From Acidobacteriota bacterium (GTDB taxonomy: Bacteria > Acidobacteriota > Thermoanaerobaculia > Multivoradales > J023), in the NCBI GenBank assembly GCA_039184055.1, contig JBCDBH010000008.1, positions 1 through 38,421 on the forward strand: 38,421 nucleotides of DNA. The letters are read 5' to 3'. The position numbers and the translations under genes are program-made. The first letter of the stretch is position 1. Every line of letters begins with the position of its first letter. Positions 27,286 to 27,582 of the stretch are shown in pieces. The notes below the pieces were generated by a model, which did not search any database, was not told the DNA's origin, and was given only the letters and a program-made list of their open reading frames with translations.

Positions 27286-27582
27286 TCAGCAATACGGCGT
27301 CAAGCTGCCGCAGCCACTCAGATCGATGGCGCAGGGGGTCTGCCCCTGGCACGCGGTGAAGTGATCCTTGGCGTATTGCTCCCAGCGGCTCTGCTCGCCA
27401 CTGCACGGATAGCAGTACGCCTGCCCGGCGTCGTAGCAACAGCCCGAGGTGCCGGTGTACAGCTTGGTACCGGACGGCGAAGTGATGGTCACGGTGCCGT
27501 CGCAGCACGACGATGGGGTGATTCCGGCCTCGGCGCCGATCACGCCGCCTACCGAGTGGGTCCGTTGAGTTGGCATTCGCAT
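27286..27582 (-). CDS. Small Cys-rich protein (98 aa, 10 Cys) - candidate precursor/structural peptide
   Basis: AGGAGG lies 11 nt upstream of the ATG. GC3 is high and coding-like. The N-terminal ~25 aa are hydrophilic with no Cys (MRMPTQRTHSVGGVIGAEAGITPSS). The remainder holds CC, CC and six further Cys. It sits in the 16-64 nt gaps between flanking co-oriented genes. Confidence 0.55.
   Translation of the reverse strand: MRMPTQRTHSVGGVIGAEAGITPSSCCDGTVTITSPSGTKLYTGTSGCCYDAGQAYCYPCSGEQSRWEQYAKDHFTACQGQTPCAIDLSGCGSLTPYC

Follow-up and report, generated by a model that had tools for sequence, protein, structure and literature searches.

A conserved Cys-rich peptide as candidate substrate of a PatA-type protease, encoded beside a TcB/TcC-like RHS gene in Acidobacteriota

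The stretch of DNA considered here (the window: 38,421 nucleotides of contig JBCDBH010000008.1, Acidobacteriota bacterium assembly GCA_039184055.1) carries a gene for a 98-aa Cys-rich peptide, flanked by the gene of a protein with a cyanobactin-type domain of unknown function (DUF) and by that of a 2181-aa RHS protein. The peptide open reading frame (ORF) is a genuine conserved gene, and we propose that it encodes the precursor of a leader-trimmed mini-protein resembling RiPPs (peptides that are made on the ribosome and altered after their translation), with a PatA-type protease encoded in the same operon as its maturation enzyme. We assign this reading a probability of about 0.6. A preliminary description, made from the nucleotide sequence alone, had already suggested the ORF as a processed substrate, and it is the best candidate for that role by invariant synteny, by the type of the protease and by its layout into leader and core.

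The basic features listed in that description are all present. The ORF translates as MRMPTQRTHSVGGVIGAEAGITPSSCCDGTVTITSPSGTKLYTGTSGCCYDAGQAYCYPCSGEQSRWEQYAKDHFTACQGQTPCAIDLSGCGSLTPYC; it has a strong Shine-Dalgarno sequence (Table 1), a GC content at third codon positions of 0.82 against 0.646 for the window, and the expected location between the DUF protein and the RHS gene. Its ten Cys stand at residues 26, 27, 48, 49, 57, 60, 78, 84, 91 and 98, with CC occurring twice. Such richness in Cys is no proof of a gene by itself: spurious frames in this GC-rich window give 14–16% Cys, non-coding frames also yield Cys-rich ORFs of about 100 aa, and overlapping plus-strand ORFs exist, all of which could be held to favor a chance ORF. 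It is the conservation of homologues, rather than Cys content, that establishes the gene as real. A search of 5.8 billion clusters returned nine close homologues with 60–80% identity; when these are aligned, none of the ten Cys varies, nor do 42 of the columns. In total, homologues are known from about 13 lineages. A second genome match is an uncultured Acidobacterium metagenome-assembled genome (MAG). Over the last 75 codons nonsynonymous divergence (dN) is 0.12–0.31 while synonymous divergence (dS) is saturated, and for the core dN/dS lies between 0.08 and 0.27 where computable. With homologues in loci that span 40–73% GC, dN/dS well below 1, a fixed start, the ribosome binding site and a conserved operon position, the chance that the ORF is spurious is negligible.

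The family is nevertheless tiny. An exhaustive profile search over 1.84 billion representatives recovered one 50%-identity cluster and three distant small relatives (P0016, P0018 and P0019; 91–97 aa, E about 1e-4), which have in common an MR(I)PxQ start, the junction ..RPSDCPDG.., the string GCCY(D/S)YPxCNxC and 8 of the 10 Cys. The remaining profile matches were rejected as homologues, being PPC (pre-peptidase C-terminal) domain repeat proteins that share only the hairpin motif SxCCxxxV(S/T)IxxPxG. In the multi-repeat members P0012, P0015 and P0020, all encoded outside the window, this recurs as G(T/S)SxCCxxKV(S/T)IxxPxG and resembles the peptide's PSSCCDGTVTITSPSG; the resemblance probably reflects a vicinal-Cys beta-hairpin motif in common, not homology. 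Profile searches of Pfam, NCBIfam and the PDB gave no family assignment for the peptide.

The preliminary description had proposed looking for the small ORF beside S8-DUF genes elsewhere, and at syntenic loci it is indeed kept. The order S8-DUF, X-DUF, peptide (X being the domain preceding the DUF in the second protein) is present in every locus reaching far enough upstream (L001, L002-4, L005, L006 and L013-18). L019 keeps the same order with one additional gene inserted, L025 and L026 have X-DUF directly upstream of the peptide, and in L008, L011 and L012 fragments bearing PatG_C lie upstream of it. Wherever sequence upstream of the peptide gene is available, the X-DUF protein comes immediately before it. 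The peptide is the only small gene always found with the S8-DUF/X-DUF pair, and only one S8 domain occurs in the window operon and in all related loci.

This single protease, a 674-aa protein, matches Pfam Peptidase_S8, PatG_D and PatG_C, and scores 498.8 bits against TIGR03895, for which the curated cut-off is 421.05. Among solved structures its best matches are PagA (4h6w, 3.5e-72) and PatA (4h6v and 3zxx, about 1e-65), with the PatG macrocyclases following at about 1e-36. The alignment is collinear, has no large insertion and brings the Asp/His/Ser triad into register, and the C-terminal half matches the PatG DUF structure 4uvq at 6e-42. On these comparisons the enzyme is a PatA-type protease and not a macrocyclase. 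Its relatives are known to cleave at defined sites: for PatA-like enzymes the cut falls after G(L/V)E(A/P)S, for PatG-like ones before AYDG (PMC10885120).

The type of the protease bears directly on the idea that the peptide is a true cyanobactin precursor, in which a core of residues about 25–48, between GITPS and CYDAG, would be excised and perhaps macrocyclized, the C-terminal 45 aa serving as follower or recognition region. The flanking strings do resemble the cyanobactin recognition sequences RSII and RSIII, CCYD is conserved, and a proxy proteome of 15.5 kb-equivalents contains no [AC]YDxG. However, the sole S8 domain is of the PatA type, the precursor has no match to a PatE-family hidden Markov model (HMM), and the supposed follower is the most conserved region of the peptide, with six invariant Cys and under purifying selection. 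The earlier comparison of CYDAG (residues 49–53) with an AYDG site fails on the same grounds: there is no macrocyclase, and the 45 residues that follow are the most constrained. In the distant clade YDxG decays to YDYP or YSYP (CCYDYP/CCYSYP); CCYD is conserved as part of the invariant Cys framework, and the xG is lost. We consider a short-core cyanobactin very improbable.

A leader-trimmed precursor, the reading we prefer, agrees better with the way conservation is distributed along the peptide. The leader starts with a fixed MR(L/I)PxQ, of which M1, P4 and Q6 are kept across both clades, whereas the rest of the N-terminal 20–40 residues varies in length and sequence among the close homologues. 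Exactly where this variable stretch meets the invariant core stands the putative junction, which reads G-[IV]-x-P-S in the clade of the window, Phi-R-P-S in the distant clade, and Phi-x-P-(S/A)-(S/D) overall. The form G-[IV]-x-P-S agrees with the PatA site at four of five positions (the Glu is absent, and L007 deviates), and the chance expectation of G[LVI]x[AP]S is about 0.03 per 100 aa. The preliminary description had likened GVIGAEAG (residues 13–20), which turns out to lie in the unconserved leader spacer, to the PatA recognition sequence; the conserved PatA-like motif is the adjacent GITPS. The double glycine it saw in SVGG (residues 10–13) is likewise unconserved, GG being expected about once per 100 aa by chance, and neither the window nor the related loci contain a C39/ABC gene.

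A conserved, substrate-like GITPS in a small protein that is rich in Cys and inherited strictly along with an S8 protease could also be read differently, with the peptide acting as a disulfide-stabilized canonical inhibitor of the neighboring subtilase, in the manner of SSI, Kazal or Bowman-Birk proteins, a loop mimicking the PatA site and the true substrate lying elsewhere. We think this distinctly unlikely. The conserved N-terminal heptapeptide followed by a spacer variable in length (24–40 aa) and sequence is leader-like and does not look like an inhibitor scaffold, none of the loci's other genes recurs everywhere as a potential substrate, and a cytoplasmic setting disfavors dependence on disulfides.

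The predicted core is expected to contain a beta-hairpin (residues 29–46), a helix (63–74) and a strand (85–89). Its Cys complement differs between the clades in a telling way: C27 and C84 are both present in the clade of the window and both missing from the distant clade, so that the totals, 10 and 8, are even. We infer that the joint gain or loss of C27 and C84 is the signature expected of a disulfide pair. The Cys might otherwise be ligands in a cytoplasmic Zn- or Cu-binding protein of metallothionein-like or zinc-ribbon-like kind, as the CC and CxxC spacings, a conserved His, the lack of a signal peptide or transporter, and the ArsR-type and thioredoxin genes nearby in locus L005 would allow. 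Those neighbors are, however, not conserved in other loci, four-ligand sites suit the pairwise behavior of C27 and C84 and the Cys counts of 10 and 8 less well than disulfides do, and metal binding would not explain why the peptide is obligatorily linked to a leader protease and secreted toxins. We therefore regard metal binding as decidedly improbable.

Table 1. Positions of the features discussed (window numbering, except where a locus is named)
Feature	Position	Strand	Description
Precursor peptide gene	27286..27582	minus	98 aa + stop; annotated MEM8960120.1 / AAGD38_01460, "hypothetical protein", Acidobacteriota MAG
Shine-Dalgarno GGAGGA	27593..27598	minus	10 nt 5' of peptide ATG; overlaps TAG stop of X-DUF gene
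Putative leader, residues 1-24	27511..27582	minus	conserved MRMPTQR start, variable spacer, junction; alignment-based
Putative junction GITPS, residues 20-24	27511..27525	minus	resembles PatA site G(L/V)E(A/P)S
Putative core, residues 25-98 (74 aa)	27289..27510	minus	10 invariant Cys; invariant C-terminal Cys (..LTPYC*)
Terminator-like GC hairpin	27257..27279	minus	10-bp stem, 9 GC pairs, 3-nt loop, then CTTCTTCCTA
X-DUF protein, 545 aa	27598..29235	minus	X domain residues 1-270 (28426..29235); PatG_D/PatG_C DUF about 290-532
PatA-type maturation protease, 674 aa	29259..31283	minus	S8 residues 8-296, linker, PatG_D/PatG_C DUF 408-667
TcB/TcC-like fusion, 2181 aa	20677..27222	minus	signal peptide, SpvB, FG-GAP propeller, RHS/YD repeats, Rhs core 1812-1892 (DPTG)
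589-aa protein	18904..20673	minus	N-terminal domain about 270 aa (19861..20673) + MstE-like class II terpene-cyclase homologue, residues 276-568
DxD motif D361/D363	19585..19593	minus	invariant in 3 homologues; aligns to MstE DAD motif
Convergent large-protein cluster	L001 10417..20333; L013 4470..14421; L005 12664..18441; L006 6447..16234		

The protease seems to have a partner in the X-DUF protein, the DUF of which is a paralogue of the protease DUF (30% identity, 3e-24). In L010 a single 964-aa protein is an S8-X-DUF fusion, recovered over X and DUF with an hhalign probability of 99.9%; this fusion, of the Rosetta-stone kind, shows the protease and X to be partners that would work together. 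DolG, in which a kinase separates the protease from the DUF (PMC12639078), provides a precedent for a tailoring enzyme at this position. For the DUF, which has a new fold and no known function, a DUF-DUF interaction has been suggested (PMC4259220). For X itself no relative was found in Pfam and NCBIfam scans of every member (E<=10) or in a PDB profile search. ABBA prenyltransferases were considered, given predicted alpha-beta-beta-alpha repeats in whose strands every other position tends to be basic or aromatic. This is a lead only: nothing beyond the repeat pattern favors it, and X matches neither PatF-type models nor PatF/PagF in the PDB. A DolG-type kinase was rejected for want of a PF00069 match, and a relationship of X to the N-terminal domain of the 589-aa protein was rejected since no similarity was found.

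Taken together, we envisage a pathway in which the 24-aa leader would be recognized by a two-protein complex of the cytoplasmic PatA-type subtilase with its DUF and the X-DUF protein, X occupying the position held by macrocyclase and tailoring domains in canonical cyanobactin G proteins. Docked to X-DUF, the subtilase would cleave at or just past Phi-x-P-(S/A)-(S/D) (GITPS/S in the window), freeing a core of 73–74 aa that X probably modifies or presents and in which, once it is outside the cytoplasm, the ten Cys most likely pair into five disulfides. Some lineages appear to add an isoprenoid enzyme, either an MstE-like cyclase (window, L005/L025) or a cis-prenyl diphosphate synthase (L019). 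The module forms an evolutionary unit with a TcB/TcC-like RHS cocoon, which would be exported by the Sec or lipoprotein route with a conserved, hydrophobic and Gly-rich tail as its cargo; the mature peptide would then most likely be a co-deployed antagonistic or partner factor of the RHS toxin, not its cargo. In kind, this would be leader-protease-dependent maturation of a ribosomal peptide whose Cys-rich product is unusually large and whose genetic pairing with a TcB/TcC-like toxin is without precedent.

Several observations weigh against this proposal. The Glu of the PatA site is missing from the junction, and L007 reads ..VQPASCC.., with PAS for PSS, because of which the scissile bond cannot be fixed exactly. 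A conserved core behind a variable leader is the reverse of what canonical cyanobactins display. The AlphaFold2 model of the peptide is of only moderate confidence (pLDDT 63), and Foldseek matched it to no known fold (best E=1.2), while X is without detectable relative in Pfam, NCBIfam or the PDB and its model is unusable (pLDDT 41). The cyanobactin DUF, in turn, has no known function and bound no substrates in vitro (PMC4259220). Peptide, protease and X-DUF all lack a signal peptide and the loci share no conserved transporter, which leaves the 74-aa product without an evident route of export and oxidation. Both the RHS gene and the cyclase are missing from several lineages, hence neither is obligatory.

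The relation between the peptide and the RHS gene deserves closer consideration. A same-strand TcB/TcC-like gene lies 3' of the peptide in seven independent lineages (window, L024, L026, L008/9, L010/11, L019-23 and L012), and the identity of the downstream RHS genes to that of the window, 69, 60, 44, 41 and 35%, tracks peptide divergence. From this co-divergence, the peptide module and the RHS gene have been inherited together. The RHS proteins of L010 and the window align collinearly from their N-termini as far as the first part of the hydrophobic tail (..IYNL..), and lipobox-like signals occur in three RHS orthologues. The tail after DPTG in the window, about 290 aa (residues about 1893–2181; 20677..21546, minus strand), is Gly/Ala-rich and hydrophobic, then acidic and Ser/Asp-rich, then of Thr/Ala-rich low complexity. 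The L010 tail (about 16000..16876) has the same hydrophobic-then-acidic order; the hydrophobic stretch is glycine-zipper-like, and a ..G(A)xIYNL.. motif is common to both. This composition is not enzyme-like and suggests a membrane-inserting cargo.

Two further observations concern the RHS orthologues. The closest one, in L024 (509..1961; 65–69% identity), is split over two frames in a short metagenomic contig, with its called start at 897 too far downstream; a frameshift in sequencing probably accounts for the split. In L010, an 87-aa ORF and a gene for a 315-aa protein with a weak match to the PI-PLC X domain lie downstream of the RHS gene (16932..18264); both are absent from the window and might serve that RHS as immunity or accessory genes.

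Given an orthologous RHS gene immediately downstream in seven lineages, co-diverging with the peptide, and RHS tails conserved enough to make a conserved partner plausible, the peptide could be an accessory of the RHS toxin, such as an immunity factor, an FG-GAP chaperone or adaptor, or a separate cargo, that is merely activated by the protease. Against this, at least six lineages retain S8-DUF, X-DUF and peptide without a nearby RHS gene, immunity genes are normally placed after the toxin domain, the known cargo of Rhs/Tc proteins is their own C-terminal tail, present here after DPTG, and a terminator-like hairpin separates the peptide and RHS genes. We judge an accessory role unlikely. The link to the RHS gene proposed in the preliminary description therefore holds as regards adjacency in seven lineages with co-diverging orthologues, but its extension to cargo for the RHS shell does not, in view of that tail, the intervening hairpin and the modules that exist without RHS.

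The hairpin begins 6 nt past the peptide stop, ahead of the RHS start, and a comparable hairpin is found 3' of the peptide gene in most related loci. Hairpins directly after the structural gene are typical of highly expressed precursor genes, for example in lantibiotic operons.

In lineages without RHS the surroundings of the peptide gene are of another kind. In four of them, and in L005, the gene faces, in convergent orientation, an adjoining and conserved set of genes for large proteins of about 460–520, about 1200–1500 (with a TIG domain), about 775 and about 1470–1500 aa (DUF6603), for which PHROG and Pfam yield no function and which have no homologue in the window. This DUF6603/TIG cluster could be an alternative large-protein partner of the module.

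Isoprenoid enzymes are found in 4 of about 13 lineages, three with MstE-like proteins and one with a cis-prenyl synthase. The 589-aa gene of the window starts 3 nt after the RHS stop, and residues 276–568 of its product align end to end with MstE (6sbf, 1.9e-13), including the DxD that MstE uses as acid motif (PMC12324236). By alignment, this C-terminal domain is a homologue of MstE-like monodomain class II cyclases. The N-terminal domain has no family match and is weakly conserved among the homologues of the window, L005 and L025. Cyclase homologues lie directly 3' of the peptide gene in L005 and L025, whereas the distant-clade locus L019 (GCA_964643525.1) carries at 519..1247, between S8-DUF and X-DUF, a cis-prenyl diphosphate synthase of the uppS family (TIGR00055, 176 bits). 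This distribution is suggestive of lipid modification in some members, but is not a core feature of the system.

A more elaborate scheme can be built on these enzymes. The product would be a lipidated, disulfide-rich peptide of ~74 aa, to which X attaches an isoprenoid that the MstE-like cyclase, where present, cyclizes, and which stands in for TcA in targeting or gate opening for an orphan Sec-exported TcB-TcC cocoon that delivers a glycine-rich membrane-inserting tail. We put this forward as a speculation that is quite unlikely to be right as it stands. Apart from this scheme, the module suggests a possible partner for those "orphan" BC-type Tc toxins that have no TcA.

Among known systems, the closest parallel is with the cyanobactins. 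Common to both are the PatA-type S8 protease joined to a PatG_D/PatG_C DUF, two DUF proteins per cluster (as in PatA plus PatG) and an adjacent precursor gene; the boundary motif resembles the PatA site in part. Here, however, there is no macrocyclase and, among the operon genes (Pfam, NCBIfam), no PatB/PatC, YcaO heterocyclase PatD or ABBA prenyltransferase PatF, while the second DUF protein bears the orphan X. The precursor falls outside the PatE-family models and lacks a follower, with a conserved Cys-rich core of 74 aa versus a short hypervariable one; the system occurs in Acidobacteriota and further metagenomic lineages outside the cyanobacteria, and there is the linkage to RHS.

PatA/PatG-family proteases with their DUF are seen as a hallmark of cyanobacteria, serving to produce small cyclic peptides. 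In the loci described here the protease-plus-DUF chassis appears to have been redeployed, in Acidobacteriota and other uncultured bacteria, on a large conserved Cys-rich core and with an uncharacterized X. Two DUF proteins per cluster, together with a natural fusion, make the cyanobactin DUF's function testable in a second setting, and the peptides themselves would be a new natural-product or mini-protein family to express.

The arrangement in L010, where X sits between S8 and DUF, corresponds to the kinase slot of DolG-type G proteins (PMC12639078), except that X has no Pkinase or other family signature and that in the window it belongs to a separate DUF protein. The small precursor and the hairpin after the structural gene recall NisA/NisP and ElxA/ElxP, systems in which an S8 protease removes the leader; ElxP is a cytoplasmic leader protease (PMC10885120). 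Unlike lanthipeptide and bacteriocin precursors, the peptide has a much larger core and is accompanied by no transporter and no LanB/C/M or other known modifying enzymes; no LanB/C/M/KC, radical-SAM or YcaO domain was detected in the window operon or the syntenic loci.

The RHS protein shares SpvB, the FG-GAP propeller, the RHS repeats, a Rhs core DPxG and a C-terminal cargo tail with the TcB-TcC and Rhs toxins, but differs in lacking TcA, PAAR/VgrG or an immunity gene, in its Sec or lipoprotein signal, and in a tail made up of Gly-rich hydrophobic and acidic low-complexity segments. As for MstE (PDB 6SBB-6SBG), homology covers the C-terminal 300 aa of the 589-aa protein with DxD kept; the additional 270-aa N-terminal domain, the peptide/RHS operon in place of a meroterpenoid cluster and the restriction to 3 of about 13 lineages set the two apart. 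Our search of the literature found no link of cyanobactin-type proteases to Rhs/Tc toxins or to Acidobacteria, and no pairing of a TcB/TcC toxin with a protease-matured Cys-rich peptide.

A secreted M12B/reprolysin-like metalloprotease of 737 aa (31569..33782, minus strand), with a clear signal peptide and weak similarity to Mep72, is encoded 285 nt upstream of the PatA-type protease; it was rejected as a member of the system, as it adjoins the module in the window only. The surroundings at 36989..38278 and 1262..5522 (both plus strand) look housekeeping, and surrounding genes include those for a DinB_2 + FGE-sulfatase protein (EgtB/OvoA-like architecture), SbcCD, a PolX-PHP polymerase, a beta-lactamase-family protein, a TPP enzyme and GH113. 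With such neighbors, the toxin/peptide operon has the appearance of an island in an ordinary chromosomal context.

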